From Burkholderiales bacterium PBB3 (GTDB lineage: Bacteria; Pseudomonadota; Gammaproteobacteria; Burkholderiales; Burkholderiaceae_C): a DNA stretch of 64,000 bases. The number at the start of each line of letters is the position of its first letter. The stretch's first letter is position 1. Location: assembly GCA_002256115.1 (NCBI GenBank), contig NKIK01000003.1, positions 194,280-258,279 on the forward strand, given 5' to 3'. The notes below the pieces were generated by a model. The model was not told where the DNA came from, did not search any database, and was given only the letters and a program-made list of their open reading frames with translations. The translations under genes were made by a program, and so were the position numbers. Of the stretch, positions 4,605 to 64,000 are shown piece after piece.

Positions 4605-5198
4605 CTATTTTAAACCAGCCCAGAGCGCCAACTCTTCAGGAGTTACCCGACCCATCTTGCGGTGCAAGATGGAGCCATCGGCGCTCAACACCACGCTAAA
4701 AGGCAAGCCACCGGTCAGGTTGCCCATGGCGCGTGTCAGCTCGGTGCCCGCCAAACCGGCCATACCCACCGAAAAATCCAGCGGCGACTTCTGCAAAAAG
4801 GCCTGCACCGGTTGCAGCTTGTCCACGGCCAGGCCCAGCACCTGCCAGCCATTGGCTTTATTTTTCAAATAAAAGTCATTGATCAAAGGCAGCTCTTCCA
4901 CGCACGGCGGGCACCAGGTTGCCCAAAAATTGAGCAGCAGAGGTTTACCGGCCAGGCTTTTCATGGGAAGCGTTGTGCCCTGGGGGGTGGGCCATTCGGT
5001 TTGCCAAAAACCTTCTGGCGGCGGCGTACCGGCTGGCGCAGCCACGACCGGCGGGGCGGCTTGGCGCCACCAAGCCAAACCTAGCCCAGCAACCGCAGCT
5101 GCACCCCCCACCGCAACCATGAGTGCGCGCCGCCCCGGCGCGAGCAAGGTGGACGATGCGCCGGGCGTGGCGACGGGTGGTACTGCAGGCTTCTTCAT
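4605..5198 (-). CDS. TlpA/redoxin-family thiol:disulfide oxidoreductase, exported
   Basis: 'FWATWCPPCVEELP' thioredoxin CxxC motif; N-terminal signal/TM region. Confidence 0.8.
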   Translation of the reverse strand: MKKPAVPPVATPGASSTLLAPGRRALMVAVGGAAAVAGLGLAWWRQAAPPVVAAPAGTPPPEGFWQTEWPTPQGTTLPMKSLAGKPLLLNFWATWCPPCVEELPLINDFYLKNKANGWQVLGLAVDKLQPVQAFLQKSPLDFSVGMAGLAGTELTRAMGNLTGGLPFSVVLSADGSILHRKMGRVTPEELALWAGLK

Positions 5199-5788
5199 AG
5201 GGCCTGATCATGCAGCAAACTGCGCAGGGCCGCCGCATCGCCCCGGGGACTGCGACCGCGGTGGTCGGGTTTCAGGGCGCCGCGCAGGTCGTCAAAGTCG
5301 TAAATCAGCAGGTGCACGCCCACGTGCTCCCCCAGCTCCGCGCTGCGCGCCTGGATGCTCAAGGCCTCCACCCGCTCGCCGGTAAAGCCGGTGACGGTGC
5401 TGGGGTCATAACGCACGCCCAGGTCGATCAGACCGATCTCCGCAGATTTGGGGTCATCGCAAAACAATTGCAGGTAAATATCTGAGCGGCGCGTGGCCGT
5501 GCCATGCCAGACCGCGCCGCCAATATAGGGGCGAAACCGCTGCAGCCGGTCCATCCAGCCCAATGCCAGACCGCGCAGCGCGCGCAGCTCCTGCGGCTGG
5601 GTGTCGGCACAAAACAGCGCGATGTAGTCCTCTACATGCGCTTCCAACAGCGCGTTGTCGGGCAAGGCGGTGCGCTCGGGCAGGCCGAGCTGCTTCACAG
5701 CGCGGCGTTTGGCTCCGCCATATTCCAAACCCTCTTCCACCACCAGGCGGGCGGCCACGGCGGCAATTTCTTCTTTCAAGGTATCCAT
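5195..5788 (-). CDS. Conserved hypothetical protein
   Basis: ORF 5195..5803 with coding-like composition; 4-nt overlap with the downstream redoxin gene. I recognise no motif. Start at 5803 or 5788. Confidence 0.5.
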   Translation of the reverse strand: MDTLKEEIAAVAARLVVEEGLEYGGAKRRAVKQLGLPERTALPDNALLEAHVEDYIALFCADTQPQELRALRGLALGWMDRLQRFRPYIGGAVWHGTATRRSDIYLQLFCDDPKSAEIGLIDLGVRYDPSTVTGFTGERVEALSIQARSAELGEHVGVHLLIYDFDDLRGALKPDHRGRSPRGDAAALRSLLHDQAL

Positions 5789-5837
5789 AGGAACATTGTG
5801 CATGCACTGCGTTCGACCTAGTTTGCTACAGTTTTAG

Positions 5838-6390
5838 GTTGCGGTAGGAGCGGAGGTTACCCCCCTCGCCCCCCCGCACAGATCCGTACGTGCGGAATTA
5901 CCGCATGCGGCTCTTGCCTCAGGTAGGTGACGCATAGAAACGATCCTCCGGGTAAGGGTGCAAACTGCGTATGGGTGGTATGAACCGCTGGGCAATACGG
6001 CTGAACCTGCATCATGGCATCTTGGGCTTCTGGCTTCTATGGCTTGGGGCCTTGCCTGTTCCGCCCGTGCCGCGTGGCTCGGGCACCGATGAGATCTCCC
6101 AGCTTCCGAGTAGATCGCTTCCCGGCATGCTCAGGGTCTCAGACCGCGCGGGGTCACAGCATGTCTTGCGATTGACGTCATGCTGCGTGTTGCCTTCTGG
6201 CATAGCAACACCATGGGCACCCCGATTGAATGATTTCGCGGCTCAATGGCTGGCCTGCTGGTCTCCCCTGTCAACGCTTCGATCCACACATCGCGGTGTG
6301 CAACGCATGACTCGGGGCCAGAGTGAGTTCGCTATTTTTTCCCTGTATTGGACTTCCACCAACTACGATCCACCGCCTTTGCCGGCGCAC
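5838..6390 (-). mobile_element. Group II intron-like ribozyme element, apparently ORF-less (553 nt)
   Basis: Read on the minus strand. 5' end GUGCGCCGGCAAAGGCGGUG (6390 downward) resembles the group II consensus 5' GUGCG. Domain V-like GAGCCGCAUGCGGUAAUUCCGCACGUACGGAUC at 5913..5881 has the AGC triad and AC bulge. Domain VI-like GC-rich hairpin has a GUAA loop and a bulged A 7 nt before a terminal AC at 5838. No RT/maturase ORF lies inside. Confidence 0.5.
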
Positions 6391-6456
6391 TGCTATATAT
6401 TTAATAGCTTCTCCCGCACTATCCACAGCCTGAATGGCCGGTTTGGCTTAAATCCA
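6391..6456 (+). repeat. Dispersed repeat, copy 1 (variant core CTTCTCCCGCACTATCCACAG)
   Basis: Aligns with copies 5 and 11 across the core and the right arm '...GCCTGAATGGCCGGTTTGGCTTAAATCC'. Abuts the intron 5' end. Confidence 0.8.
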
Positions 6457-6459
6457 AGG

Positions 6460-6990
6460 GGTAATCCCCCGGCTGTGCCGGGGTGACAGTAGAAGTTTGA
6501 CATTTGCGTTGGTATGGGTGTTCATCGCAGAAACTTCCAATCGTGAGCCGCCAAGCACACGAAAGGAAAAGAGGCGATGGACAAGATAGAAAACCTAAAC
6601 CACACGAAGTGGGACTGCAAGTACCACGTAGTGTCCATACCGAAGGATCGAAGAAAAGTACTGTACGGGCAATTGAGAGTGCACCTCGGAGAGGTATTTC
6701 GGGGGCTGGCCCAACACAAGGAGAGCCAGATAGAGGAAGGGCATTTAATGGCCGACCACGTCCACATGATGATCTCGATACCGCCGAAATACACGGTGTC
6801 CAACGTGGTGGGTTACATCAAGGGGAAAAGCGCGATACACCTAGCTCGGGTGTATGGGGAGAGAAAGAGAAATTTCACGGGGCAAAGCTTCTGGGCGCGG
6901 CGTTACTTTGTCTCGACCGTGGGATGAGACGAGGTATAGCCGCTTTGAGCGGCTCACAATATTGAAAACCCCCGGCTTTGCCGAGGGATG
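6460..6990 (+). mobile_element. Decayed IS200-family element
   Basis: Truncated tnpA flanked by similar subterminal hairpins: CCCCGGC-TGT-GCCGGGG (6467-6483) and CCCCGGC-TTT-GCCGAGG (6970-6986). Confidence 0.6.
6577..6927 (+). pseudogene. IS200-type Y1 (HUH) transposase TnpA, C-terminally disrupted
   Basis: 'HTKWDCKYHVVSIPKDRR', HUH motif 'DHVHMMISIPPK', 'FWARRYFVSTVG' then a stop. The usual C-terminal helix with the catalytic Tyr is missing or frameshifted ('DETRYSRFE' sits in another frame). Confidence 0.7.
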
Positions 6991-6996
6991 GTTATT

Positions 6997-8100
6997 TCAC
7001 ACCAAGCTAGCCAAGGCCGCCGGTGAAAAGTCAGACAGCTCGCTGGTGCGGCCATCGCGCACTTTCAGTGCCCAGTCCGGGTCACTGATGAGGGCGCGGC
7101 CCACGGCTACCAAGTCAAAGTCGCCGCGGTCAAAGCGGCGCATCAACTCGTCCAGCGACGCGGGCTTGGAGCTTTCGCCACCAAAGGCGGCGATGAATTC
7201 ACCGCTCAGGCCCACCGAGCCGACGGTGATGGTCGGGCGGCCAGTGAGCTTTTTGGCCCAACCGGCAAAGTTGAGGTCAGAGCCTTCAAACTCGGGCTCC
7301 CAGAAACGGCGTTGCGAGCAATGGAAGATATCCGCACCTGCGTCGGCCAGGGGCTGCAGCCAGGCGGCCATTTCATCGGGCGTTTGCGCCATGCGCGCGG
7401 TGTAGTCTTGCTGCTTCCATTGCGACAGGCGAATGATGACCGGATAGTCGGGCCCCACTTCAGCACGCACCGCTTTCAAAATATCGGCCGCAAAGCGCCC
7501 GCGTGCCACCAAGTCGCTGCCGCCGTAGCGGTCGGTGCGCGTGTTCATGCCGTCCCAGAAGAACTGGTCGATCAAGTAACCATGCGCACCGTGCAGCTCG
7601 ATGCAATCAAAACCCAGGCGCTTGGCGGCACCGGCGGCCTTGGCAAAGGCGGCAATGGTGTCGGCGATGGCCGAGTCTGTCATGGGTTCACAAAACGCCT
7701 TGCCCGGCTTGGACAGGCCAGATGGGCCGTCCCACGGCATAGGTGGCAGCCAGTCGATGCGGCGGTTAGGCACAGCGCCCACATGCCAGAGCTGCGGTGC
7801 CATCACGCCACCGGCGGCATGCACGGTGTTGATGACGTCTTGCCAACCGGCCAGCGCGTCGTCGCCCCAAAAGCGGGGCACATTGGGGTCGTTGCTAGAG
7901 GCGGGGCGCTCAATCACCGTGCCCTCGGACACGATCAAACCAACTGCCGATGCAGCGCGCTTGCGGTAATACTCGCTCACGTCCTTGGTGGGCACGCCGC
8001 CGGGTGAAAAAGAGCGTGTCATGGGGGCCATGACAATGCGGTTGGCGAGCTTGAGGCTCTTCAGGGCGAAGGGTTGGAACAGCGGTGCAGCGTTAGACAT
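6997..8100 (-). CDS. Old Yellow Enzyme family NADH:flavin oxidoreductase
   Basis: 367 aa. 'LANRIVMAPMTR', 'GFDCIELHGAHGYLIDQF' OYE signatures. Confidence 0.85.
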   Translation of the reverse strand: MSNAAPLFQPFALKSLKLANRIVMAPMTRSFSPGGVPTKDVSEYYRKRAASAVGLIVSEGTVIERPASSNDPNVPRFWGDDALAGWQDVINTVHAAGGVMAPQLWHVGAVPNRRIDWLPPMPWDGPSGLSKPGKAFCEPMTDSAIADTIAAFAKAAGAAKRLGFDCIELHGAHGYLIDQFFWDGMNTRTDRYGGSDLVARGRFAADILKAVRAEVGPDYPVIIRLSQWKQQDYTARMAQTPDEMAAWLQPLADAGADIFHCSQRRFWEPEFEGSDLNFAGWAKKLTGRPTITVGSVGLSGEFIAAFGGESSKPASLDELMRRFDRGDFDLVAVGRALISDPDWALKVRDGRTSELSDFSPAALASLV

Positions 8101-8251
8101 ACAGGCAAAAGGTGAAAGAGTTGCAGATCAAACCAGTTTACGTGGGCTGGCGGGGGCGCGTGGCGCGCAGGGTCTCCCAGGCTACAGCGGCAAACTCTCT
8201 GGTTAGACTGGCCATTACGCAGGTCATTTGAATGTCTAAGCACGCTACTCA

Positions 8252-8305
8252 TTTGATAGCTGCTCCCGCACTATCCACGGGCTGGAAGGCGTATTTCTAT
8301 ATGAA
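8252..8305 (+). repeat. Dispersed repeat, copy 2 (short left-arm form)
   Basis: 'TTTGATAGCTGCTCCCGCACTATCCACGGGCTGGAAGGCG...', 28 nt upstream of the hsdM ATG. Confidence 0.8.
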
Positions 8306-8332
8306 AACTTTAGAATTAAAACTGTCACATTC

Positions 8333-16300: not shown

Positions 16301-16381
16301 GATGGCGAATTCCGAAAACTGGCGCTGGAGCACCTGTTGCACAAGGTGTACCAGAGTTTGAAGAATGGGAAAAAGCGTTGA
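13304..16381 (+). CDS. hsdR: Type I restriction enzyme, R (helicase/nuclease) subunit
   Basis: 1025 aa. 'HSAGSGKSNS' Walker A, 'VIVDEAHSSQSG' DEAH box, 'FAFTATPKFKT'. Confidence 0.9.
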   Translation: MKKHTEARLEDAIVDSLTREGGFALVDYRHGPAAGRYDKALALDPALVLGFIQTTQPKVWHSLHAIHKDETPKVVLDHLVKELDTKGMLKVLRQGFKCYGKKLRVAVFAPNNAMNPDTLALYGHNQLTVTRQLYYSDAHSKSLDLVLFLNGLPIATAELKNPLSGQTVEDAKRQYKRDRDARELLFEFKKRALVHFAVDQDQVFMATRLSGDKTFFLPFNLGDNGHPGNPPAADGGYRTAYLWREVWQRDSLLDIVGRFMHLQEEDKRILTNEGIKKIHKETMIFPRYHQLDAVRKLVVHAQAHGPGRNYLVQHSAGSGKSNSIAWLAHRLSSLHDAADNKVFDSVIVVTDRQVLDTQLQDTIYQFEHKQGVVQKIDEDTRQLAQALAGGTPIIITTLQKFPFITETLDKLRKENHPGIAIDTRDKQFAVIVDEAHSSQSGENAMELKGVLNAHRIEEEAAQYVAEQGLDSQDDEDEADPLAGVVREMRKRGKQSNLSFFAFTATPKFKTKKVFDEPGPNGQSPFHLYTMRQAIEEKFILDVLKHYITYEAYFRLVQVGDDDPHVERKKAARALARTLTFHEVNLRSKTEVMVEHFRTHVRHKIGGRAKAMVVTDGRLHAVRYKQTFDAYIAEKGYTDVKTLVAFSGMVEDPRFPGKNLTEVGMNGGIKEKELPEKFESAEYQVLLVAEKYQTGFDQPLLHTMYVDKKLTGLQAVQTLSRLNRSCVGKEDTFILDFRNTPEEIFTAFKPYYEDTPTDLLTDAQHLYRLHHQIEETGLIFEEEVNAFGAVYFKSVRKQSVSDHAAMNGVLDQAVDRFKELDEDEREETKALLVNFRNLYAFMSQVIPYQDSDLEKLYTYLRFLLTKLPRREGGGTVQLDEEVELQYYRLQKIGEGRIDLSAGQAQPLKGPNDVGTGQEDAPIRLSELIDLLNQRFGTDFTQADQLFFDQIQEEAIESDVLQQAAETNSKEDFRYVFEKAFEGLVMERMEGNEEIFGKLMADGEFRKLALEHLLHKVYQSLKNGKKR

Positions 16382-18717
16382 GACGCCTCCTTGCTATTCT
16401 TTTAGTAGCTGCTCCCGCACTATCCACGGCCCCAGCAGCGCATTCGGCTAGTTTTTCGGAGGTCAAAGCGGCTTACCAACCGTCGGACACGCTAATTCTG
16501 GACCGCCGAGGGGAGGTGATTCACCGCATCCGCACCGATGCCACGGTGCGCCGTGGCCAGTGGGTGGCCTTGGCGGATGTGTCGCCCGCCTTGCGCACGG
16601 CGCTGGTGTTGAGTGAAGACAAGCGTTTTTACGAACACAGCGGGGTAGATTGGCAAGCCGTGTCCAGCGCGGCCTGGGGCAATCTGTGGAACAGCAAAAC
16701 GCGCGGCGCGTCCACCATCACCATGCAGCTCAGTGGCTTGCTGGATGACGACCTGAAACGCGGTAGCGGCGGGCGCAGCGTGGTGCAAAAGTTGGGGCAA
16801 ACCGTGTCGGCCACGGTGCTGGAGCGGAGCTGGCGCAAAGATCAAATTTTGGAAGCCTACCTGAATCTGGTGCCGCTCAAAGGCGAGCTGGTGGGCATAG
16901 ACGCGCTAAGCCGCACCCTGTTTGGCAAGGCCGCGCACGGCCTGGACAACCGCGAGGCTGCCGTGGCCGCCGCCCTGGTGCGCGCGCCCAATGCCAAAGC
17001 GCCCCAAGTGGTGCAGCGCGCCTGCAGCGTGCTGCAAGCGCTGCAAAAAGCGGGCAATGCAGATTGCGAGGCGCTGGATTTGTTTGTGACTGGTGCGCTC
17101 TCGCGGCGCGACTATGAGGCCAGCAGCGGGCTGGCACCGCATGTGGCGGTGCAGGTGACGAAAGCGCTTCAAGCAGGGCCAGCAAACGGTGGGATTGGGG
17201 AAAGCTCGGCTGCGAAGTTGCCTGCCAAGTTAGTGAGAGCCAGCACCATCATCACGACGACTTTGCGCGCACCCTTGCAGCGCTTTGCCGTGCAAACCCT
17301 GCAAACCCATTTGCGTGAACTCAGTGGCCGCCATTTGGAAGACGCCGCGCTGGTCGTGCTGGACAACGCCGGCGGCGAGGTGCTGGCCTGGGTCGGGTCC
17401 TCCGGGCCACTCAGCCGCGCAGAAGACGTGGACTTTGTCACCGCGCTGCGCCAGCCAGGCTCTACGCTCAAGCCGTTTTTGTATGCGCAGGCGATTGCCG
17501 AGCGGCGCATCACCGCCGCCTCCCTCTTGGAGGACTCGGATGCCCAAATACAGACCAGCGGCGGCCTGTATATCCCGCAAAACTACGACCGCCACTTCAA
17601 AGGCTGGGTATCGACCCGCACGGCGCTAGGCGCATCGCTCAATGTGCCGGCCGTGCGCACGCTGGTCATGGTGTCGCCCGACGCGTTTCAAAAACAACTG
17701 GTGGCGCTGGGCCTGCCGCTGAAGGAAAGCGGCGACTTTTATGGCTACAGCCTGGCGCTGGGCAGCGCCGAGGTGTCGTTGCTGAATCTGAGCAATGCCT
17801 ACCGCGCTTTGGCCAATGGCGGGCGCTACAGCCCCACCCGCCTGACGCTGGCGGCACCCGTGGCTACGCAGCGCAGCACACGCACCCCACTCACTGCAGC
17901 CGCTTTGCCCCCCAGCCGCCAGGTGCTGGACCCGCGCGCGGCATTCATCGTGGGCGATATCTTGAGCGACCCCCTGGCCCGCGCCCGCAGCTTTGGCACC
18001 GACAGCGTGCTGGCCACCCGCGCCTGGACGGCCGTGAAAACCGGCACTAGCAAAGACATGCGCGACAACTGGGCCGTGGGCTACTCCCAGGCCTACACCG
18101 TGGGTGTGTGGGTGGGCAATGCCAGCGGCGCGCCGATGTGGGATGTGAGCGGCACCACCGGCGCGGCACCAATCTGGGCGGCGACGATGAACTACCTGCA
18201 CGCCAAACAGCCCAGCCGCGCGCCCAAGCCACCAGCGGGTGTGGTGCAGGCCGCAGTGCAATTTGCCAACCCCACGCCCGGCGGCGGCGCGGCTTCTGGC
18301 ACCGCAGCCCTGGTTAGCAGCACCGAAGCCGCGCGCCAGGAGTGGTTTATTGCAGGCACACAGCAAAGTGCATTTGCTATGAAAACAGGAGCTTCTCCCG
18401 CACTATCCACGGCCTACAAAGCACATAACACCAGTAACGCCCAAGACAGCGCCAGCGCCCGCATCACCAGCCCCACGCACGGCACCATCATCGCGTTGGA
18501 CCCCGACATCCCCCCCAAAGCCCAACGCCTGAGCTTCAGCGCCGAAGGCAGTGGCCTGCGCTGGAAGATGGACGGCAAAGTATTCGCCAGCGGCAACGCC
18601 GCCCAGTGGCTGCCCTGGCCGGGGCGGCATGTGGTGCAGATTGTGGACAGCAAGGGCAAGGTGCTCGATGAGATCAAACTCGAAGTGCGCGGGGCGGGGG
18701 TGGTGGCTAAGCGATAG
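16378..18717 (+). CDS. pbpC: Penicillin-binding protein 1C (bifunctional transglycosylase/transpeptidase)
   Basis: 'EDKRFYEHSGVD' GT51 motif, 'PGSTLKPF' (SxxK), 'KTGTS' (KTG). The only in-frame start is TTG 16378, which overlaps the hsdR stop. N-terminus uncertain. Confidence 0.85.
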   Translation: MRRLLAILLVAAPALSTAPAAHSASFSEVKAAYQPSDTLILDRRGEVIHRIRTDATVRRGQWVALADVSPALRTALVLSEDKRFYEHSGVDWQAVSSAAWGNLWNSKTRGASTITMQLSGLLDDDLKRGSGGRSVVQKLGQTVSATVLERSWRKDQILEAYLNLVPLKGELVGIDALSRTLFGKAAHGLDNREAAVAAALVRAPNAKAPQVVQRACSVLQALQKAGNADCEALDLFVTGALSRRDYEASSGLAPHVAVQVTKALQAGPANGGIGESSAAKLPAKLVRASTIITTTLRAPLQRFAVQTLQTHLRELSGRHLEDAALVVLDNAGGEVLAWVGSSGPLSRAEDVDFVTALRQPGSTLKPFLYAQAIAERRITAASLLEDSDAQIQTSGGLYIPQNYDRHFKGWVSTRTALGASLNVPAVRTLVMVSPDAFQKQLVALGLPLKESGDFYGYSLALGSAEVSLLNLSNAYRALANGGRYSPTRLTLAAPVATQRSTRTPLTAAALPPSRQVLDPRAAFIVGDILSDPLARARSFGTDSVLATRAWTAVKTGTSKDMRDNWAVGYSQAYTVGVWVGNASGAPMWDVSGTTGAAPIWAATMNYLHAKQPSRAPKPPAGVVQAAVQFANPTPGGGAASGTAALVSSTEAARQEWFIAGTQQSAFAMKTGASPALSTAYKAHNTSNAQDSASARITSPTHGTIIALDPDIPPKAQRLSFSAEGSGLRWKMDGKVFASGNAAQWLPWPGRHVVQIVDSKGKVLDEIKLEVRGAGVVAKR
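16400..16457 (+). repeat. Dispersed repeat, copy 3 (inside the pbpC 5' end)
   Basis: 'TTTAGTAGCTGCTCCCGCACTATCCACGGCCCCAGCAGCGCATTCGGCTAG', translated as '[18 protein letters not shown]'. Confidence 0.8.
18372..18432 (+). repeat. Dispersed repeat, copy 4 (in frame inside pbpC)
   Basis: 'TTTGCTATGAAAACAGGAGCTTCTCCCGCACTATCCACGGCCTACAAAGCAC', translated as 'FAMKTGASPALSTAYKAH'. Confidence 0.8.
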
Positions 18718-26459: not shown

Positions 26460-27140
26460 CTATTTGCTTAAGTGCAACACGTAGCGGCTGCCCAATCGGG
26501 CCTTAAAGATTTTGGCCAACTCGCCATTCCTCTGCAGCTCCGCCAGGCCGCGCACCAACTCCTGCCCCAGCTCTGGCTCCAAACCCGGAGACAGCATCAA
26601 CCACACCGGTTTGGATGCCAACACCAAGCGCTGGGCATCTGCAAAACTGGCTTCCAAACCCGTGCTGGACAAGGCATCGAGCAAAGATTCATTTACCGTA
26701 CAAAAGCCATCGATCCGCCGTGCCTGCAACATGCGCACACCTGACTCCTGCGACTGAAGTTCCTGAAACCGCCAGGGCACGGCGCGGTCGTCACTCAGCT
26801 CTTGGCAGCCACCGTTCATGCGGCCCAGCGCCAAGGGTGCCAAATCACCGCGCCCGGCCACCAGCGCAGCCGCACGGGCAAAGGGCACGACCTCCACCCG
26901 TATCACCCGCCCTGTTTGTTGGGACAAGGCTGCCGCAATGTCCGGGTAAATTCCCTGCGGGCGGCCACTGGCGTCTATCCAGCCAAACGGCTTGGCCTGC
27001 AAAACCGGCATAGAGAGCGCACGCTCGGTTGCTAGCAGAGGCGCGCACCATACCAACGCCCAACACGCCAACAAAGCCCGGCGCAGCGCTGCAGCAGTAG
27101 AAACGGCGAAGGGGAATGGCATGGAGACATCGTAGTCCAA
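26460..27140 (-). CDS. Periplasmic solute-binding-protein-like (family 3) protein, divergent
   Basis: Signal peptide; 'FGWIDASGRPQGIYPDIAAAL' resembles SBP_bac_3. Short, with weak similarity. Confidence 0.4.
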   Translation of the reverse strand: MDYDVSMPFPFAVSTAAALRRALLACWALVWCAPLLATERALSMPVLQAKPFGWIDASGRPQGIYPDIAAALSQQTGRVIRVEVVPFARAAALVAGRGDLAPLALGRMNGGCQELSDDRAVPWRFQELQSQESGVRMLQARRIDGFCTVNESLLDALSSTGLEASFADAQRLVLASKPVWLMLSPGLEPELGQELVRGLAELQRNGELAKIFKARLGSRYVLHLSK

Positions 27141-28471
27141 TCACGGGGGTCTGGGCTTGCTATCCTTGTCCCGTGCCATCGCCCTCCCCCACCATCCGCC
27201 GCATTGCCCACCTGGACATGGACGCGTTTTACGCGTCGGTAGAGCTGCTGCGCTACCCGCAACTCAAAGACCTGCCGGTGGTGATAGGCGGTGGGCGCGC
27301 GAATGTGGCGGCAGCCCTGGAGGTACTGCGCCAGCAAGCCGCAGAAGACGCGCCCGAGCTGGAGTGGGATGCCGCCGCGCAGCGCGCCGCACTGCGCCGC
27401 ATTCCCATCGATGCGTTTGCTCGCCTGGCGGACTACACCGGCCGCGGTGTGATCACCACCGCCACCTATGCCGCGCGCCAGTTTGGTGTGGGCTCGGCCA
27501 TGGGTCTGATGAAGGCCGCCAAGCTGTGCCCGCAGGCCATTCTTTTGCCGGTAGATTTTGAAGAATACCGGCGCTACTCGCGCCTGTTCAAATCCATCAT
27601 CACCGAGATTGCACCGCTGATGGAGGACCGCGGCGTGGACGAGGTCTACATCGACTTCACCGACGTGCCCGGCGGCCAGCGCGAGGGCGGCCGCGTGCTG
27701 GCGCGTCTGATTCAAAAGGCGATTTTGGACGCGACTGGTCTGACTTGCTCAGTGGGCGTGGCACCCAACAAACTGCTGGCCAAGATGGCCAGCGAATTCA
27801 ACAAGCCGCGCGGCATCTCTATCGTGTTTGAGGCCGATGTGCCGACCAAGGTGTGGCCGCTGGCCTGCCGCAAGATCAACGGCATTGGCCCTAAGGCGGA
27901 CGAGAAGCTCAAGCGCTTTGGTATTGAAACGATTGGCCAACTGGCCGAGCGTGATTTGCAGTGGCTGATGGATACCTTTGGCCAGCGCACTGGAGCCTGG
28001 CTGCACGCCGCCAGCCACGGCCAGGACGACCGCCCGGTGGTGACGGAAAGCGAACCCGTGAGCCTGAGCCGCGAGACAACTTTTGAGCGCGACCTGCACG
28101 CCGTGCGCGACCGCGCCGAGCTGGGGGCAGTCTTCACCCGCCTGTGCGAGCAGGTGGCGGCCGACCTGCAGCGCAAGGGCTACGTCGGCAAAACTATCGG
28201 CATCAAGCTGCGCTATGACGATTTCAGCGGCGTGACGCGCGACCTGACGGTGGAGCAGTACACCGACGATGCAAAAACCATCCGCCAACTGGCTGGCCAG
28301 TGCCTGAAACGCGCGCCGCTGCAGAAGAAGCTGCGGCTGCTGGGTGTGCGCGTGGGGGCGCTGGCAAACCGTGCCGACCTCCCTGGATTAATAGCCAAAA
28401 GTGCCTTGCAGGCCGTGGATAGTGCGGGAGCAGCTCCTGAATTAATAGCGGTTAACGGGGAGCTCTTTTAA
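27116..28471 (+). CDS. dinB: DNA polymerase IV (Y-family)
   Basis: 'IAHLDMDAFYASVELL', 'VDEVYIDFT', 'SVGVAPNKLLAKMAS'. The last ~25 codons run through repeat copy 5. Confidence 0.9.
   Translation: MAWRHRSPITGVWACYPCPVPSPSPTIRRIAHLDMDAFYASVELLRYPQLKDLPVVIGGGRANVAAALEVLRQQAAEDAPELEWDAAAQRAALRRIPIDAFARLADYTGRGVITTATYAARQFGVGSAMGLMKAAKLCPQAILLPVDFEEYRRYSRLFKSIITEIAPLMEDRGVDEVYIDFTDVPGGQREGGRVLARLIQKAILDATGLTCSVGVAPNKLLAKMASEFNKPRGISIVFEADVPTKVWPLACRKINGIGPKADEKLKRFGIETIGQLAERDLQWLMDTFGQRTGAWLHAASHGQDDRPVVTESEPVSLSRETTFERDLHAVRDRAELGAVFTRLCEQVAADLQRKGYVGKTIGIKLRYDDFSGVTRDLTVEQYTDDAKTIRQLAGQCLKRAPLQKKLRLLGVRVGALANRADLPGLIAKSALQAVDSAGAAPELIAVNGELF
28381..28462 (-). repeat. Dispersed repeat, copy 5 (full-length form, inverted orientation)
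   Basis: 'CCCTGGATTAATAGCCAAAAGTGCCTTGCAGGCCGTGGATAGTGCGGGAGCAGCTCCTGAATTAATAGCGGTTAACGGGGAG'. Confidence 0.85.
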
Positions 28472-34577: not shown

Positions 34578-34922
34578 CTACTGGTCTGTGGCGACGCCCA
34601 GCCGCCACAGCGACGTCACCTCTTTGGAGCGTGCTGCGTGCGGCGGGTCGGTGGCCACGATCCGGCCGATTCCCCGGCGCGCCAGCACCGCCAACAAAAC
34701 ACCGGTGCCCGTGCCAATATCAAAGGCGCACAGGGCCGCCACCGAAGCCACGCTAACGGCGCCGGGTGGGCCCCAGGCCTCTGCACAAGCCTGACGCGCA
34801 TCGGGGCTGCGCTTCAGAGGGACACTGTAGTCAGCCTCAAAGCCAATCAACAGCATGCCCAGCACGCGAGAGCGCTGGGCTTGGCGATGCAGATGGAAGC
34901 CTGCGGCAAAACTAAGTGCCAA
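34578..34922 (-). pseudogene. Decayed copy of the methyltransferase gene at 47407..48756
   Basis: The translation matches three separate blocks of the 467-aa protein ('FHLHRQAQ..VLGMLLIGFEADY', 'FDIGTGTGVL.AVLARRG', 'HAAR..EVTSLWRL'), with two large internal deletions and no N-terminal third. Confidence 0.65.
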
Positions 34923-34986
34923 ATCGGCCTTTGAAGCCGTGGATAGTGCGGGAGCAGCTCCTGAATTAATAGCGGTTAACGGGGAG
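34906..34986 (-). repeat. Dispersed repeat, copy 6
   Basis: 34936-34986 is identical (51/51 nt) to 28412-28462 of copy 5. Confidence 0.85.
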
Positions 34987-35020: not shown

Positions 35021-36373
35021 TCACGACGGCCGCACAGGCTTCTTGCCGCGCTTGGGCGCCAGCAATACCGACTCACCCACTCTTGCAGTGGCGAATTTCT
35101 GGGGTGGTGATGGCTCCATCACCCCCGCCTCTTGAGTGAGCTTTGTCATTTCTGGCACCTGGATTTGAATGCGCTCGTTCAGTCGATTGAGCCCTGCGTT
35201 CCAGTGCCACAGCATCCTCGCGCCCACCGCGTCAAACCCTGGCGTGTGCTTCATGCGTTGAATCAATTCCGGCACGGTCGCCGCCACGGCGGTGCACACC
35301 AGCTCAGCGAGTTCGCGTTGGCGCGGGGGGTCGATACCCAGAAACACTTGCATGAATTGCCACAAGGGCTTCAGATGGGTCCAGCTCTTGCGGCCATCGA
35401 TGGACATGCCTGGCGGGTTATCCGCGTAGCTGTCATAGGCCACGATGGTCAGCATGTCGTAGATGGGCGCGACATGCACATCCTCCAAGCCGGTGTACAA
35501 AAAAGCAAGATTCTTGGTGTGGCAGTCTGAGTTGCCAAGTGCGTGCGTCAACAGCAGTGTCACGGCCAGTTGCTCGTAGGACGCGCGGCGGCCCTGGGGT
35601 GGCACATAGTTGCGCACAAGGCGCGCGGCGCGCTCCCAGGTGCCGTCGTACTTTTGCTCGGCACCCATGCCCAGCATGCTGCAAAAGTCTTCAAAACCCA
35701 GCCGCTCGCCAGTGAGCGGATCAATGTCAAAGCGCTCGACCACGAGGATCTGACCGTCGTCGGAAACCACTGTTTCTGCAACCGCGAAGCCGGTGGCTTT
35801 GGCCGCTTGCATACACAGGTGCTCGTTGAGCCCCACAAGCGGTTGCTTGTCTGAGCTAGCTTTGACGATGTGGCGCTCTGTGGATACGGTGCCTTTGCGG
35901 AACAGTGCTTTGGTCTCTGGCGTCAGAAATTTGGGGACCACCCCCGACACGCCTGAGGCCGCGTACTGGCTCATCAATTGCAGAAACACTTCGCGCGAAG
36001 ACTCACCATGCAACAGTCCATCGAGTTCATTGGCGGCGAGTTGCGGATTGGGACTACTGCCTGCGCTTACCTGAACGCGACCGATCATGTTGTGCCCCAC
36101 CACCGACAGCAGATCCATGGGACTTGCTCCCAGATGCGGCCCCAACTGCTCTTTGAGGACGGACAGTAAAAACCCCTCCGGCAGACTCACCTGAAAGAAA
36201 GGGTGCAGATTGGGCCACTCCCAGCTGGGGGACTGCACGGGCATGAGCAGCGACACAAAATCCTCGGGAGGGGTTCCGTGCAGGTAGGTCAGGTAATGCT
36301 CAAACCCTGCGGGGCTCTGCAACACCGCCACATGTCTGCCGTTCACGAAGACATTGAGTTCTGCCTTGCTCAT
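35021..36373 (-). CDS. hipA: HipA-family Ser/Thr kinase toxin
   Basis: 450 aa. N-terminal HipA coupling region; catalytic loop 'GNSDCHTKNLAFL' (DxHxKN); overlaps the upstream HTH gene. Confidence 0.85.
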   Translation of the reverse strand: MSKAELNVFVNGRHVAVLQSPAGFEHYLTYLHGTPPEDFVSLLMPVQSPSWEWPNLHPFFQVSLPEGFLLSVLKEQLGPHLGASPMDLLSVVGHNMIGRVQVSAGSSPNPQLAANELDGLLHGESSREVFLQLMSQYAASGVSGVVPKFLTPETKALFRKGTVSTERHIVKASSDKQPLVGLNEHLCMQAAKATGFAVAETVVSDDGQILVVERFDIDPLTGERLGFEDFCSMLGMGAEQKYDGTWERAARLVRNYVPPQGRRASYEQLAVTLLLTHALGNSDCHTKNLAFLYTGLEDVHVAPIYDMLTIVAYDSYADNPPGMSIDGRKSWTHLKPLWQFMQVFLGIDPPRQRELAELVCTAVAATVPELIQRMKHTPGFDAVGARMLWHWNAGLNRLNERIQIQVPEMTKLTQEAGVMEPSPPQKFATARVGESVLLAPKRGKKPVRPS

Positions 36374-36842: not shown

Positions 36843-36913
36843 CCCCCTAGATTAGTGGCCAAAAGTGCCTTTCAACCGGCGATAGTGCGGGGGCAGCTCC
36901 TGAATTAGTAGCA
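36843..36913 (-). repeat. Dispersed repeat, copy 7 (degenerate)
   Basis: 'CCCCCTAGATTAGTGGCCAAAAGTGCCTTTCAACCGGCGATAGTGCGGGGGCAGCTCCTGAATTAGTAGC'. Confidence 0.75.
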
Positions 36914-47153: not shown

Positions 47154-47311
47154 TGTTCTCCCTCTTATATGGCTAAGCGCCGTTTTGCCGCGATGTTAGC
47201 CAATCTGGCCCGCGGCGGGCCCGTTTTCTACGGGCTTGCGGATATTGTGTGCAATAAATTGGCCCCACAGCGCAAAAGCCATCTTGGGCTTAGGGGCCTT
47301 GGCAGCCGCGC

Positions 47312-47382
47312 AATTTAAATGAATTCAAGCTGTAGAGCCCATGGATAGTGCGGGAGCAGCTTCTGAATTGATAGCAATCAAT
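47312..47382 (-). repeat. Dispersed repeat, copy 8
   Basis: '...GAGCCCATGGATAGTGCGGGAGCAGCTTCTGAATTGATAGCAATC'. Confidence 0.8.
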
Positions 47383-47406: not shown

Positions 47407-48756
47407 CTAGCGTGCGGGTGCCACCGCCAACCGCCACAGCGAGGTGACCTCTAGCGCACGCGCCGCGTGCAGCGGGTCGGCCGCATCAAAGGCCTTGCCA
47501 TGCACCGGCTTGGTATCCAGCCGCCCCAGCACCTGCAGGCCCGCGCCAGCAATCGCGTCCAACAATTCAGCGCGGCTGCGCAGGCCCAGGTGTTCGGCCA
47601 AATCCGAGAGGATCAGCCAGCCCTCGCCCTGCGGCTCCAAGTGCGCGGCCAGGCCCGCCAAAAAGCCCAGCAGCATAGCGCTGCCTTCGTCATACACCGC
47701 GTGCTCTATGGGTGAGCTGGGCCGGGCGGGTAGCCACGGCGGGTTGCACACGATCAGATGCGCCAGCCCTGGCGGGAATAGGGATGTCTGCAACAACTGC
47801 ACCGGCGAATCAGCGCGGCCCGCCACGCCCAGCCTCTGCAAATTTTCAGCCGCGCAGGCCAGGGCGCGCGGGTCCAGATCGGTGGCCACGATATGGCCCA
47901 CACCCCGGCGCGCCAGCACCGCAGATAACACGCCCGTGCCCACACCAATGTCAAACGCCGTCAGCTTGGCGGCGGCCTGCGCACCGTGGGCTCCTTGGAC
48001 TCCTTGGACTACTTGGACACTTGGCAGCGGTGCCTGCTGCACCAAGCTCACATACTCACCCCGCTGCGGAGAAAACACGCCGTAGTGCGGGTGGATGCGG
48101 TTGTGGGGCGCAGCGCCCAGGGCGGGCACTTCCACACCGTTTTTGCGCCACTCGTGCGCGCTGATCAGGCCCAGCAGCTCACGCAATGACGCTACCGAAG
48201 CCACAGCGTCCGCACCCGGCGGGCCCCAAGCCTCAGCACAGGCCTGGCGCGCATCGGGGGCGCGCTTGAGTGCGATACCGTAATCCGCCTCAAAGCCAAT
48301 CAGAAGCATGCCCAGCACGCGCGCACGCTGCGCCTGGGCTTGGCGGTGCAAATGAAAGGCAGTGGCCGGATTCGATGCCTTTTCGGCCACTGAGGCCGTG
48401 GATAGTGCGGGAGCAGCTCCTGAATTAATAGCATTGCGCTCTGGCGCGCCCGCTAGTTGCTTTGCCCTCTTGATGGCCTTGGCACCCTTGGCGGCTTTGC
48501 CGCTGGGGCCCGACGCATCGGCCCGCCGCGCGAGCGCCTGCAGCATCTGCCGCGCGTTTTGAAAATCACCCCGCCACAGCAGCGCCGTGCCTTCGCAGGC
48601 CAGGCGGTAAGCGACATCGGCGCTCAGGGTGTCATCGGCCAGCACCACGCGCTTGGGTGGGCTGACACCACGCTCTGAGCGCCACTGCGCGCTGCAGGGC
48701 TGGCCGGCTTCTTGCCAGTGGATGCGGGCTTCGCCCGATGTTGGTGAAGTCGTCAT
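47407..48756 (-). CDS. Class I SAM-dependent methyltransferase (NPPW motif; HemK/RsmC-like) with a long N-terminal extension
   Basis: 'FDIGVGTGVLSAVLARRG' motif I, 'LIVCNPPWLPA' motif IV. Start ambiguous (48756, 48771 or 48810). Contains repeat copy 9 in frame. Confidence 0.75.
   Translation of the reverse strand: MTTSPTSGEARIHWQEAGQPCSAQWRSERGVSPPKRVVLADDTLSADVAYRLACEGTALLWRGDFQNARQMLQALARRADASGPSGKAAKGAKAIKRAKQLAGAPERNAINSGAAPALSTASVAEKASNPATAFHLHRQAQAQRARVLGMLLIGFEADYGIALKRAPDARQACAEAWGPPGADAVASVASLRELLGLISAHEWRKNGVEVPALGAAPHNRIHPHYGVFSPQRGEYVSLVQQAPLPSVQVVQGVQGAHGAQAAAKLTAFDIGVGTGVLSAVLARRGVGHIVATDLDPRALACAAENLQRLGVAGRADSPVQLLQTSLFPPGLAHLIVCNPPWLPARPSSPIEHAVYDEGSAMLLGFLAGLAAHLEPQGEGWLILSDLAEHLGLRSRAELLDAIAGAGLQVLGRLDTKPVHGKAFDAADPLHAARALEVTSLWRLAVAPAR
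48366..48433 (-). repeat. Dispersed repeat, copy 9 (in frame inside the methyltransferase)
   Basis: '...GAGGCCGTGGATAGTGCGGGAGCAGCTCCTGAATTAATAGC', translated on the minus strand as '[19 protein letters not shown]'. Confidence 0.8.
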
Positions 48757-50732: not shown

Positions 50733-51653
50733 CTACTGGCGCGCGGTGCGGGTATTGCGCGGCAAGGCCTGCGGGTGGCTGGTGCGAAAGGGGTTGATGT
50801 CCAAACCACCGCGGCGTGTGTAGCGCGCGTACACCGCCAGCTTCATGGGTTTGCAGCGGGTCCAGATGTCCATGAAGATGCGCTCCACACACTGCTCATG
50901 AAACTCGTTGTGGTTGCGAAAACTCACGAGGTACTGCAACAAGCCAGCTTGGTTAATCTGATCACCGGTGTAGCTGATCTGCACACTGCCCCAGTCCGGC
51001 TGGCCGGTGACCAGGCAATTGCTTTTGAGCAAATTGCTGACAAACACTTCGGACACCGGCGCTTCATCCGGCGTCGCGCTCAAGAGCTGCGGCGCAGGCG
51101 TGTAGTGCTCAAAGTCCATGTCCAGCCGGTCCAGACTCAGGCCATCCAGCTCATGCACGGGCTCTTTGTCAAACGCGTCCATGCCGAACACTGTGACGCC
51201 AATAGAGGCGTGGGTGGACACTATCCGTTCTCCCTGAGCCTGTCGAAGGGCTCCGACGGGCTCAGCCCGAACGGCCGTCGAATCTTCAGTCGCCGTGTCC
51301 CGCCACACCGCTTCTGAAATATCGGCGCGCAGCCGTTCCTTCACTGCCTGCGCATCGGCAAAGCGGGTGTTGTTAAAGCTGTTGAGATAGAGCTTGAAGG
51401 ACTTGCTCTCTACGATGTTCAGCGTCTCACACGGAATGGTGAAGTGGGCCAGCGCCACCTGGGGCTTGCCGCGCAGGTTCAGCCAGCTCAGCTCAAACGC
51501 GGTCCACATATCGGCACCCAAAAACGGGGTGGTGCCAGCAATGCCAATCTCTTCCCGTTTGCCCGCGCGGGGAATGGGAAACAGCAGCGTGGGGTCGTAC
51601 TGGTCGATATAGGCGCTGGACTTGCCCAGTTGCGATTGCTCGGGCGTGTTCAT
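50733..51653 (-). CDS. queF: NADPH-dependent 7-cyano-7-deazaguanine (preQ0) reductase, two-domain type
   Basis: Collinear with E. coli QueF: '[18 protein letters not shown]', '[19 protein letters not shown]', '[17 protein letters not shown]', '[14 protein letters not shown]'. Confidence 0.9.
51225..51274. repeat. 50-nt imperfect palindromic element inserted in frame in queF
   Basis: Arms 51225-51245 and 51254-51274 are complementary at 17/21 positions (CCGTTCTCCCTGAGCCTGTCG / CGACGGGCTCAGCCCGAACGG). Encodes '[15 protein letters not shown]', absent from E. coli QueF at this position. Confidence 0.6.
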
Positions 51654-52549
51654 GGCCGCGTGCCTAACAAGTGCGAGGTCAGGGCCTCCACAATTTGGCG
51701 CACCGGCTCGGGCGGCAGATCGTGGCCCATGCCGTCAATGGTGAGCAGGCGTGCGCCGGGAATGCGGCGTGCCGTGTCTTCGCCATTGCCCAGCGGCACC
51801 AGGGGGTCCGCCTTGCCATGGATCACCAAGGTGCGGCTGGTGATGGACGCCAAGGCCTCCGCCCGCCCGGTGTCGGCCACGATGGCCAGCATCTGGCGCA
51901 GCGTGCCCACCGGGTGAAAACTGCGCTTAACGCCGATGGCAATGCGCTCGCGCATTTCGGTCTCGGGCACCGGGTAGGCCGGGCTGCCAATGATTTTGAA
52001 CAAGGCGACAAAATGGTCCATGGCTGCCGCCGGGTTGCGGGCGGGGCGCTTGAGCATGGCGCGCAGCACTTCTGGCCGGGCCTGGGGCAGGCCGCGTGCA
52101 CCGCTGCTGCTCATGATGCTGGTCAGACTCAGCACCCGCTTGGGCGCGGCGATGGCCACGCGCTGGGCAATCATGCCGCCCATGCTGACGCCCACCACAT
52201 GGGCGTATTTGATTTTTAGGGTGTCGAGCACGCCAATGGCGTCCTGCGCCATATCAGTCAGGGTGTAAGGGGGCTTGGTGCCCAGGCCCAGCTTGAATTT
52301 CAAGGTAGCCCACAGCAGGCTGGGTTTGCCCAGGTGGTCAAAGTGCTGGCTCAGGCCAATGTCGCGGTTGTCCATGCGGATCACGCGAAAGCCCGCGTCC
52401 ACCAGCGCCTGCACCATCTGCGGCGGCCAGGCCACCAGTTGCATGCCCAGCCCCATGATCAGCAAGACCACCGGTTGGCTGGCCGATGCGGGCTTGCCGT
52501 TGGCACTGTCTTCAATCTCGATATCGATACCATTTGCTCTGATTTTCAT
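51650..52549 (-). CDS. Alpha/beta-fold hydrolase
   Basis: '[13 protein letters not shown]' nucleophile elbow; 'HGKADPLVP', 'GMGHDLP'. Confidence 0.8.
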
Positions 52550-52600
52550 AGCTGCTCCCGCATATTTACAGGGCCTTACAGCCCGATTGGGTTAAAAATT
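52545..52600 (+). repeat. Dispersed repeat, copy 10 (degenerate)
   Basis: 'TTTTCATAGCTGCTCCCGCATATTTACAGGGCCTTACAGCCCGATTGGGTTAAAAATT'. Contains the hydrolase start codon (52547-52549) and the GGGAG 5 nt upstream of it. Confidence 0.7.
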
Positions 52601-53480: not shown

Positions 53481-53552
53481 CCCTCAAATTTAAGCCAAAT
53501 CAGCCGTTCAGGCCGTGGATAGTGCGGGAGCAGCTCCTATTTTTATAGCAAT
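53481..53552 (-). repeat. Dispersed repeat, copy 11
   Basis: 'CCCTCAAATTTAAGCCAAATCAGCCGTTCAGGCCGTGGATAGTGCGGGAGCAGCTCCTATTTTTATAGCA'. Confidence 0.85.
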
Positions 53553-63120: not shown

Positions 63121-63954
63121 TCATGCGCGTTTTCGGGTCGGGTACTCGCTCATCACCACGGCAATGACCACCAGAGCCGCACCGATAGAGGCCTGCAAAG
63201 CCAGTGCCTCGCCGAGCCATAGCCATGCAAACACGGCGGCAAATACCGGCTCCGTGGCGTAGACCAAGGCGGCTTTGTCGGCAGTAACATGGCGCTGGGC
63301 AATCGCTTGCAAAAAGAGCATACCCGCAGTGGCTATCACGCCCAAGTACACCAATCCTGCAAACACTTGCCAATCCATTCTGTCGGGCAAAGTAGCCAAG
63401 CTGTCGGTGCCAACGGACGCCAACACCATCCACACGCCACCCAAGCCAGCCATCCAGACCACCTGCGTAGCCGCCAAATGTTTGGGGTTATGGCGCACCG
63501 CCCATTTTGACAAGATGATGACGTCTATTGCATACGCCAAGGCACCCAAAATGGTTGCAGCATCTGCCCACCAATGGGCACCGCCCTCCCACGACATCAA
63601 GCCAATGCCAACACAGGCGAGGGCTGCGGCAGCCCATACTAGCCAACTCGGGCGTGCACCCAGCACGAAGCCCAACATGGGAACCATCAGCACATTGAGA
63701 CTGGTGAGGAAGGCACTGCGGTTAGACGAGATGTGTTCCAAGCCATAGGCCTGCGCCACATAAGACGCCAGCACGATGACGCCCAGCACACCACCATCTC
63801 TCCAGGCTTGCTTAGGCGCGCGCACTGCAAAAGGCAGCATCAGCGCCGCTGCAATGAACCTATTTCCGGCAGTTGAAGCTACTAAAACCTGCTGCAAGTT
63901 AGACTGGGAGCCGAGTTCAACGAATTTGTAGAGGTCACCAAATGGGTGAAGCAA
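63121..63954 (-). CDS. EamA/DMT-family transporter
   Basis: About 10 hydrophobic segments in two EamA-like halves. The true start may lie slightly upstream of 63954. Confidence 0.75.
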   Translation of the reverse strand: MLHPFGDLYKFVELGSQSNLQQVLVASTAGNRFIAAALMLPFAVRAPKQAWRDGGVLGVIVLASYVAQAYGLEHISSNRSAFLTSLNVLMVPMLGFVLGARPSWLVWAAAALACVGIGLMSWEGGAHWWADAATILGALAYAIDVIILSKWAVRHNPKHLAATQVVWMAGLGGVWMVLASVGTDSLATLPDRMDWQVFAGLVYLGVIATAGMLFLQAIAQRHVTADKAALVYATEPVFAAVFAWLWLGEALALQASIGAALVVIAVVMSEYPTRKRA

Positions 63955-64000
63955 AAAGACGTCAATTGGCTGCGCAAGCGCAAGCCATGGATGTCATGTT

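Follow-up and report, generated by a model that had tools for sequence, protein, structure and literature searches.

On the minus strand of the DNA analyzed here, a stretch of 64,000 nucleotides from Burkholderiales bacterium PBB3 (contig NKIK01000003.1, positions 194,280 to 258,279; hereafter the window), a group II intron begins where a copy of a dispersed repeat ends. This raises the question of whether the repeat family is the homing target of the intron, and of how such a site would be recognized. A first-pass annotation of this DNA had placed the 5' end of the intron against the ...ATAGCA end of a repeat copy, and both the junction sequence and the Rfam matches agree with that placement. 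On the minus strand, the exon side of the junction reads ...GTGGATAGTGCGGGAGAAGCTATTAAATATATAGCA and the intron side GTGCGCCGGC..., with the boundary between positions 6391 and 6390. The start of the intron (6390) lies one base past ...ATATATAGCA, whose hexamer is the last conserved stretch of the repeat. The occupied copy of the ~65-nt repeat spans 6391..6455 (minus strand; ATTTAAGCCAAACCGGCCATTCAGGCTGTGGATAGTGCGGGAGAAGCTATTAAATATATAGCA); read from 6456 to 6391, it ends in ...GCTATTAAATATATAGCA, and GTGCGCC begins at 6390.

The intron spans 5838..6390 (minus strand, 553 nt), from 5' GUGCG to ...CUACCGCAAC 3'. The Rfam model RF02005 (group-II-D1D4-6) matches 6356..6134 with 166.6 bits over its full length, and RF00029 (domains V/VI) matches 5915..5838 with 37.6 bits (E value of 1.8e-5), a match found at relaxed thresholds and slightly below the gathering score of 40 bits. 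Both ends of the intron line up with the ends of related introns from public genomes, and the GUGCG start and ...AAC end agree with the 5' GUGYG and 3' AY of group II ribozymes. Domain V (5881..5913, minus strand) has the AGC triad, an AC bulge, and a 5-nt terminal loop, UAAUU (GCGG-UAAUU-CCGC), and domain VI (5838..5880, minus strand) has a bulged A located 8 nt from the 3' end.

The repeat is oriented and non-palindromic, about 65 nt long, and present in 11 copies in the window. Its core, GGATAGTGCGGGAGCAGCT, is found in 10 of these at three or fewer mismatches, versus 0.08 expected, and the remaining copy is degenerate. A metagenome scan with the core returned 43 loci, of which about 30 are true members of the family, giving 39 unique copies when those of the window and of related metagenome contigs are taken together. 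The information content per position over these 39 copies was used to set the boundary. Counted from the core start, conservation spans about −32 to +33, and the terminal A, T, A, G, C, and A carry 1.3, 1.7, 2.2, 1.8, 1.4, and 1.0 bits, followed by 0.4 bits at the next base and ∼0 thereafter. The intron thus starts within one base of the 3' boundary, and the claim that it sits exactly at, or near, the repeat terminus holds.

The other window copies ending in ATAGCA include those at 16393..16460 and 18376..18442 (both minus strand, the latter in frame within pbpC) and at 53485..53550 (plus strand). The copies at 28385..28450 (at the 3' end of a dinB-like open reading frame [ORF]) and 34909..34974 end in ATAGCG, and that at 36848..36913 ends in GTAGCA, all three on the plus strand. 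Two further plus-strand copies, 47311..47376 and 48368..48433, end in TGAATTGATAGCA and TGAATTAATAGCA, respectively. These copies, as well as the one at 8244..8310 (minus strand), are unoccupied. The degenerate copy is located at 52535..52600 (minus strand), where its tail gives the start codon of the downstream gene. The three sequences that the annotation had quoted as other copies, TTATAGCAATCG, TGATAGCAATCA, and TAATAGCATTGC, were recovered as the copies at 53517, 47343, and 48400. The only ATAGCA copy of the window that is followed by C is the occupied one.

An EBS-IBS complementarity to the exon flank, on which the annotation had made a link between intron and repeat depend, was found in domain I. 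The loop GUUGCUAU (6202..6209, minus strand) closes the hairpin at model positions 141-168 in the Rfam structure, and its UGCUAU (6207-6202) is a perfect complement (6/6 bp) of AUAGCA. This IBS1, ATAGCA (6391..6396, minus strand), makes up the final hexamer of the 5' exon and coincides with the conserved 3' terminus of the repeat. The loop is assigned as EBS1 because it covaries with the cognate 5' exons in related introns: a 6-bp pairing between the corresponding loop and its own exon exists in six of seven introns of the same Rfam type. Among the six introns other than that of the window, the 6-bp cognate pairing is seen in L081, L075, L028, L011, and L037, and 4 bp are seen in L084. Their loops read UAAGCG, UAAGCG, UGAGCG, GAGCAA, UACUGU, and UAGCUU, and the matching 5' exon ends read CGCUUA, CGCUUA, CGCUCA, UUGCUC, GCAGUA, and UUGCUA. 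The intron sits exactly at the repeat end because EBS1 pairs with ATAGCA, which is that end; as judged from this complementarity, the link between the intron and the repeat is base pairing and not DNA structure.

A candidate EBS2, AUUCAAU (6225..6231, minus strand), is part of an internal loop of domain I, AAAUCAUUCAAU (around 6236-6225). Its AUUCA matches UGAAU at −13..−9 of the commonest repeat tail (cTGAATtaATAGCA) in 5/5 positions, and the candidate matches the tail of the occupied copy in 6/7. In L028 and L084, the loops in the corresponding position match their respective exons in 5/5 positions, at −12/−13. In an all-against-all test that allowed G-U pairs, cognate combinations were no better than non-cognate ones. 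With Watson-Crick pairs only, the means were 3.6 for cognate combinations versus 2.7; for the match to the common tail, a comparison chosen post hoc, the P value is about 0.03. The EBS2-IBS2 pairing is therefore statistically weak and suggestive only.

The order of events can be read from related genomes. Downstream of the intron lies a gene for a protein of 202 amino acids (5195-5803, minus strand) preceded by a 20-nt spacer (5195..5823 together), and synteny with the relatives holds from its ATG (5803/5802). Homologues of this gene, 86 to 95% identical, are found in metagenome and genome contigs of Rhodoferax-like bacteria. Those of L164-L167 and L172 (95%), L173 (94%), L168/169 (90%), and L171 (88%) have an orthologous repeat copy before the gene at the same distance, always followed by a 20-nt spacer, with mpl as the divergent upstream neighbor. 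The orthologous repeat is well kept in the closest relatives (tail ATTAAATATGTAGCA/G versus ATTAAATATATAGCA in the window) and decayed in the distant ones. Both the intron and an IS200 element described below are absent from the orthologous repeat sites of these six related genomes; since the orthologous copy is empty in them, the repeat preceded the intron. A resemblance of the spacer in L164 (TGCGGGGGTGGGCG) to domain VI, considered as a footprint of an intron, is coincidental, given that every relative has the 20-nt spacer. In all, about 50 repeat copies other than the occupied one are empty, including the orthologous copy in the six related genomes.

The intron retains little of a coding sequence. 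A tblastn search with the protein of L075, together with translation, identified an ORF remnant at 5919..6041 (minus strand) that corresponds to the last ∼40 codons of an intron-encoded protein (...RFIPPIRSLHPYPEDRFYASPT, followed by the stop codon), with one in-frame TGA farther upstream. Compared with the L075 protein, ∼450 codons, comprising the reverse transcriptase and most of the maturase domain, are deleted, and homology to the 1.9-kb relatives covers intron positions 1-353 and then about 431-553. With 553 nt in total and ∼40 C-terminal codons remaining, it belongs with the ORF-less introns and, as judged from these alignments, arose by deletion and no longer has a reverse transcriptase gene of its own. 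In bacteria, ORF-less introns are rare and normally coexist with a related ORF-containing intron that acts in trans (PMC4424553). A search with the 40-residue ORF remnant gave no close relative, and an Rfam search of the 64-kb window gave no related ORF-containing intron. The reverse transcriptase would have been supplied in trans from a full-length relative, and the C terminus of the protein of such a helper is expected to read ...HPYPEDRFYASPT. The intron of the window may be immobile now.

Taken together, the pairing and the empty sites make it moderately probable that insertion was guided by the EBS and that the repeat family serves as a de facto pool of sites. The non-autonomous intron would have entered a pre-existing repeat copy by RNA-guided reverse splicing followed by reverse transcription. 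The site would have been picked by pairing of EBS1 (UGCUAU) with ATAGCA, and AUUCA may also pair with UGAAU in the A/T-rich tail upstream. Since the 3' end of the repeat hardly varies from ATAGCA, EBS1-guided insertion into a repeat copy lands exactly at the boundary. The family gives close to half of the ATAGCA hexamers in a G+C-rich genome, which would make it the main practical pool of sites. That the family, rather than this single site, is the habitual target may be supposed. Against it speak the many empty copies, among them those of the window at 47343 and 48400, which match the candidate IBS2 as well as IBS1 perfectly, and the C that follows ATAGCA in the occupied copy alone among the window copies with this end. 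The event would be an ordinary sequence-guided intron insertion, with no new mode of targeting.

The annotation had offered class C introns as a precedent for homing next to structured DNA, and this analogy does not hold. At terminators and attC sites, IIC introns recognize a stem-loop and an IBS1 of 3 to 4 nt, with no EBS2 (PMC4424553). The intron of the window resembles them in lying beside a recurring short DNA motif in intergenic DNA and differs from them in having no stem-loop and a full 6-nt IBS1, in addition to a candidate EBS2 loop. Its domain V terminal loop has 5 nt instead of 4, as in classes E and F. Moreover, the terminal loop CAAUCGCAAG (6174-6165) can pair, through UCGC/GCGA, with the loop AAUAGCGAAC (6336-6327); this candidate alpha' pairing was read from alignments, in which L011 shows one compensatory change. 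A 5-nt domain V loop and an alpha' at the tip of a stem-loop in DId3 are marks of IIE/IIF introns, whose ribozymes measure 450 to 700 nt (PMC3753933), a range that includes the ribozyme of the window. By these predicted features, the intron is of the IIB-like class E/F type and does not belong to class C. From the distribution of the classes, we presume that class E is likelier than class F. It is highly improbable, then, that the intron recognizes a stem-loop of the repeat DNA as IIC introns do. In the occupied copy, the tail can fold into a hairpin of 5 bp (GCTAT-N7-ATAGC), but this hairpin is not conserved elsewhere, where only the 3 bp of GCT/AGC are kept. RNAalifold gave, on both strands, only these 3 bp and a weak 5-bp stem, without compensatory changes. 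Folding of the repeat as single-stranded DNA, a check that the annotation had proposed, gave no structure either: the predicted folds of eight copies/strands were no stabler than those of shuffled sequences (z scores of −0.64 to +1.13). There is thus no conserved or stable hairpin before the insertion site, and the full 6-bp EBS1 stands with the IIE/IIF-type features, with no IIC features beside them.

In a rival reading, the intron came to this copy as DNA and not by reverse splicing, either through recombination or gene conversion among the repeat copies or jointly with part of another copy. In its favor are 14 nt, CTAAAACTGTAGCA (5824..5837, minus strand), located directly 3' of the intron and absent from every empty site, which resemble the tail of another repeat copy (11/14 identical to the copy at 16407) and end with the near-IBS1 sequence GTAGCA. 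Such an addition is not expected from simple retrohoming. Three origins are conceivable for the 14 nt: an earlier local duplication, which would also have given the C at +1 (a base found in most introns of this Rfam type), a stretch of donor 3' exon that came along, or an exchange of DNA among repeat copies that left them as a trace. Against such a transfer of the intron, the 5' tail ATTAAATATATAGCA is orthologous to that of the relatives and was therefore not imported, and the perfect EBS1-IBS1 match is what reverse splicing predicts; we regard this route as improbable. A more serious competitor is incidental adjacency, in which a single retrotransposition hit an ATAGCA that was a repeat end by chance and left a relic that is now immobile, with no special tie between the intron and the repeat family. 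A random position and strand in 64 kb would reach one of the 11 repeat ends with a probability of only about 1e-4. Once EBS1 is given, however, the prior rises to ∼45%, as 6 of the 14 ATAGCA hexamers of the window (one of the 14 being the complement of EBS1 itself) are repeat ends, and adjacency alone is accordingly no sign of specialization. Consistent with chance, no second copy of the intron was found, either in a metagenome scan for introns with the same EBS1 hairpin or in 245 kb of related repeat-bearing contigs; two matches to the hairpin in viral contigs are chance matches in a coding region and not introns. The loss of the ORF, with no matching protein found, and the poorer fit of the occupied tail to the candidate EBS2, compared with the tails of other copies, point in the same direction. 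On the other side, and indirectly, the candidate EBS2 fits the commonest tail of the family, and the closest relatives among the matches listed are specialized on the ends of IS66 elements. On balance, we consider chance adjacency possible and somewhat unlikely, and EBS-guided insertion into a pool of repeat sites remains the preferred reading. What the locus shows at present is a normal insertion guided by EBS1, and the analogy with class C introns is corrected.

The related introns come from a scan of a genome collection with a domain V pattern, a general one, which returned at least 118 loci. The closest full-length relatives among the matches listed are L081 (Mesorhizobium calcicola) and L075 (Pseudomonas), both inserted in ...GCGCTTA/C (the slash marks the insertion point), 1 nt inside the terminal inverted repeat of an IS66-family element. 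Their 90-nt exon is also found in 197 rhizobial plasmids, beside IS66 tnpA/tnpB, and an empty IS66-end site in Rhizobium tropici pRtrCIAT899b reads ...GAGCGCTTAC. In the 5' exon of L075 (58-157), the IS66-end target is duplicated in tandem (GTTTATGGAGCGCTTA twice). A plasmid match in Rhizobium rhododendri (H1), considered as an ORF-less relative of 500 nt, consists of the 3' end of one intron and the 5' end of another. The IS66-end introns (L081, L075, and the copies in Rhizobium/Sinorhizobium plasmids) share with the intron of the window the D1 architecture, 75 to 80% nucleotide identity, the EBS1 in the same hairpin, the C at +1 in the 3' exon, and insertion at 0 to 1 nt from the terminus of a multicopy element. 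In contrast, they measure ∼1.9 kb and encode an En-less reverse transcriptase, the proteins of these relatives having no En domain. They also differ in their guide, with an EBS1 UAAGCG fitting the IS66 tip GCGCTTA/C, whereas the intron of the window has another EBS1, which matches a dispersed repeat of its host. Given the location of the relatives at IS66 tips, insertion at the ends of multicopy DNA recurs in the lineage, and end-of-repeat targeting is plausible.

A bolder proposal, which we consider unlikely, is that the lineage retargeted its EBS1 (and EBS2) from IS66 tips to the 3' end of a host-wide repeat, whose hundreds of copies would be intergenic safe-harbor homing sites for ORF-less introns mobilized in trans. 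If true, bacterial group II introns would have in such a repeat, in addition to unique homing sites, terminators, and attC sites, a fourth kind of target. If the family proves to be the usual target, the intron of the window would offer a clear example of a non-IIC, sequence-guided bacterial intron that uses a dispersed host repeat as a harmless multicopy landing pad, and a natural ORF-less derivative would also join the short bacterial list.

Several known systems are comparable. RmInt1, RmInt2, and Sr.md.I1 of Sinorhizobium are En-less introns of the IIB type (class D) that home into multicopy insertion sequences through EBS1/2/3, and RmInt2 has been described as targeting the inverted repeats of such elements (PMC4615759). 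They differ from the intron of the window in being class D introns that contain an ORF and whose mobility was experimentally shown; no class D C-terminal motif was apparent in the protein of the relatives of the window intron. In Pseudomonas putida KT2440, two of nine intron copies are associated with REP sequences (Tobes and Pareja 2006, PMC1525189). That case is similar in that an intron lies next to a dispersed extragenic repeat; it differs in that REPs are palindromic and the association is weak, whereas the repeat of the window is non-palindromic and the pairing to its terminal hexamer is explicit. The known ORF-less introns of bacteria are likewise rare derivatives (PMC4424553).

On its other side, the occupied repeat copy adjoins, at its left end, a defective element of the IS200 family (6454..6998, plus strand; tnpA at 6577-6927) that has an internal deletion of ∼120 nt. 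Apart from the missing ∼120 nt, the element can be aligned over its whole length, left hairpin through right end, to the IS200 of Achromobacter pDCA-1. Its tnpA matches positions 2-107 of the 121 of the Pfam profile Y1_Tnp, and as a result of the deletion it stops before the C-terminal helix with the catalytic Tyr. Absent from all relatives, the element marks the synteny break. Its right end touches the stop codon of an OYE reductase gene (6997-8100, minus strand), and the variable region beyond the break holds this reductase, a type I restriction system, pbpC, dinB, and hipA. A 30-kb inversion between inverted repeat copies, which would have parted mpl from the downstream gene, was considered and rejected, the ORF at 35021-36373 encoding HipA and not a Mur ligase. 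At the far end of the window, 138 nt (63848-63985) match, with 97.8% identity, the end of a metagenome contig that is unrelated elsewhere (L152, 12190-12327) and may be another repeated or mobile sequence.

The repeat family is a by-product of this work that is perhaps of more interest than the intron insertion. As far as the copies compared here indicate, it is an undescribed and strongly conserved family of Rhodoferax/Polaromonas-like bacteria: it matched no Rfam family and nothing in the plasmid collection, and no mention of it was found in a literature search. The repeat is not a REP or REPIN, as it has no imperfect palindrome or hairpin, and the adjoining Y1 transposase is not a RAYT; it belongs to an ordinary IS200 that has its own ends and is absent from the relatives. 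As for a MITE, there are no terminal inverted repeats, and presence/absence polymorphism is seen between L164 and L168, with borders blurred by divergence. This polymorphism concerns a copy between the genes for DAHP synthase and an acetyltransferase (L164, 807-866), in the place of which L168/L169 have only 23 nt (L168, 2316-2340), and it suggests that the repeat is or was mobile. A micro-ORF in the repeat (..PWIVREQLL and a stop), with coding-like stop and Leu codons, has no consistent start and is preceded by in-frame stops in some copies, and another frame is equally open. By-eye comparison with sigma-54 and sigma-70 promoters gave no fit, and a role as a replication signal was discarded on account of an orientation that is unlinked to GC skew. 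Our working guess is that the repeat is a non-autonomous mobile or recombining element recognized by a protein.

Some copies have become part of genes or accompany them. The copy at 18376-18442 lies in frame in pbpC (16378-18717, plus strand), between the transpeptidase and BiPBP_C domains (FAMKTGASPALSTAYKA). A related peptide (FAINSGAGRAYSTRARGLND) occupies this place in PbpC homologues of other genomes, and in L174 (10001-10885), 37 nt of the DNA there share ∼81% identity with the repeat consensus in reverse complement. Judging from these resemblances, either the repeat was inserted in frame in pbpC long ago or pbpC is the source of the repeat family. In the dinB-like ORF (27116-28471, plus strand), which encodes a Y-family polymerase, the last ∼30 codons past IMS_C come from the copy at 28385-28450. 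In the degenerate copy (52535-52562), GGGAG and the tail make up a Shine-Dalgarno-like sequence and the ATG of the gene at 51650-52549 (minus strand; ATGAAAATCAGAGCAAATGGT...). Finally, the segments 34578-34973 and 47420-48432 are paralogous (∼80% identical) and hold a methyltransferase-like gene and a truncated copy of it, with a repeat copy after each at the same relative position.
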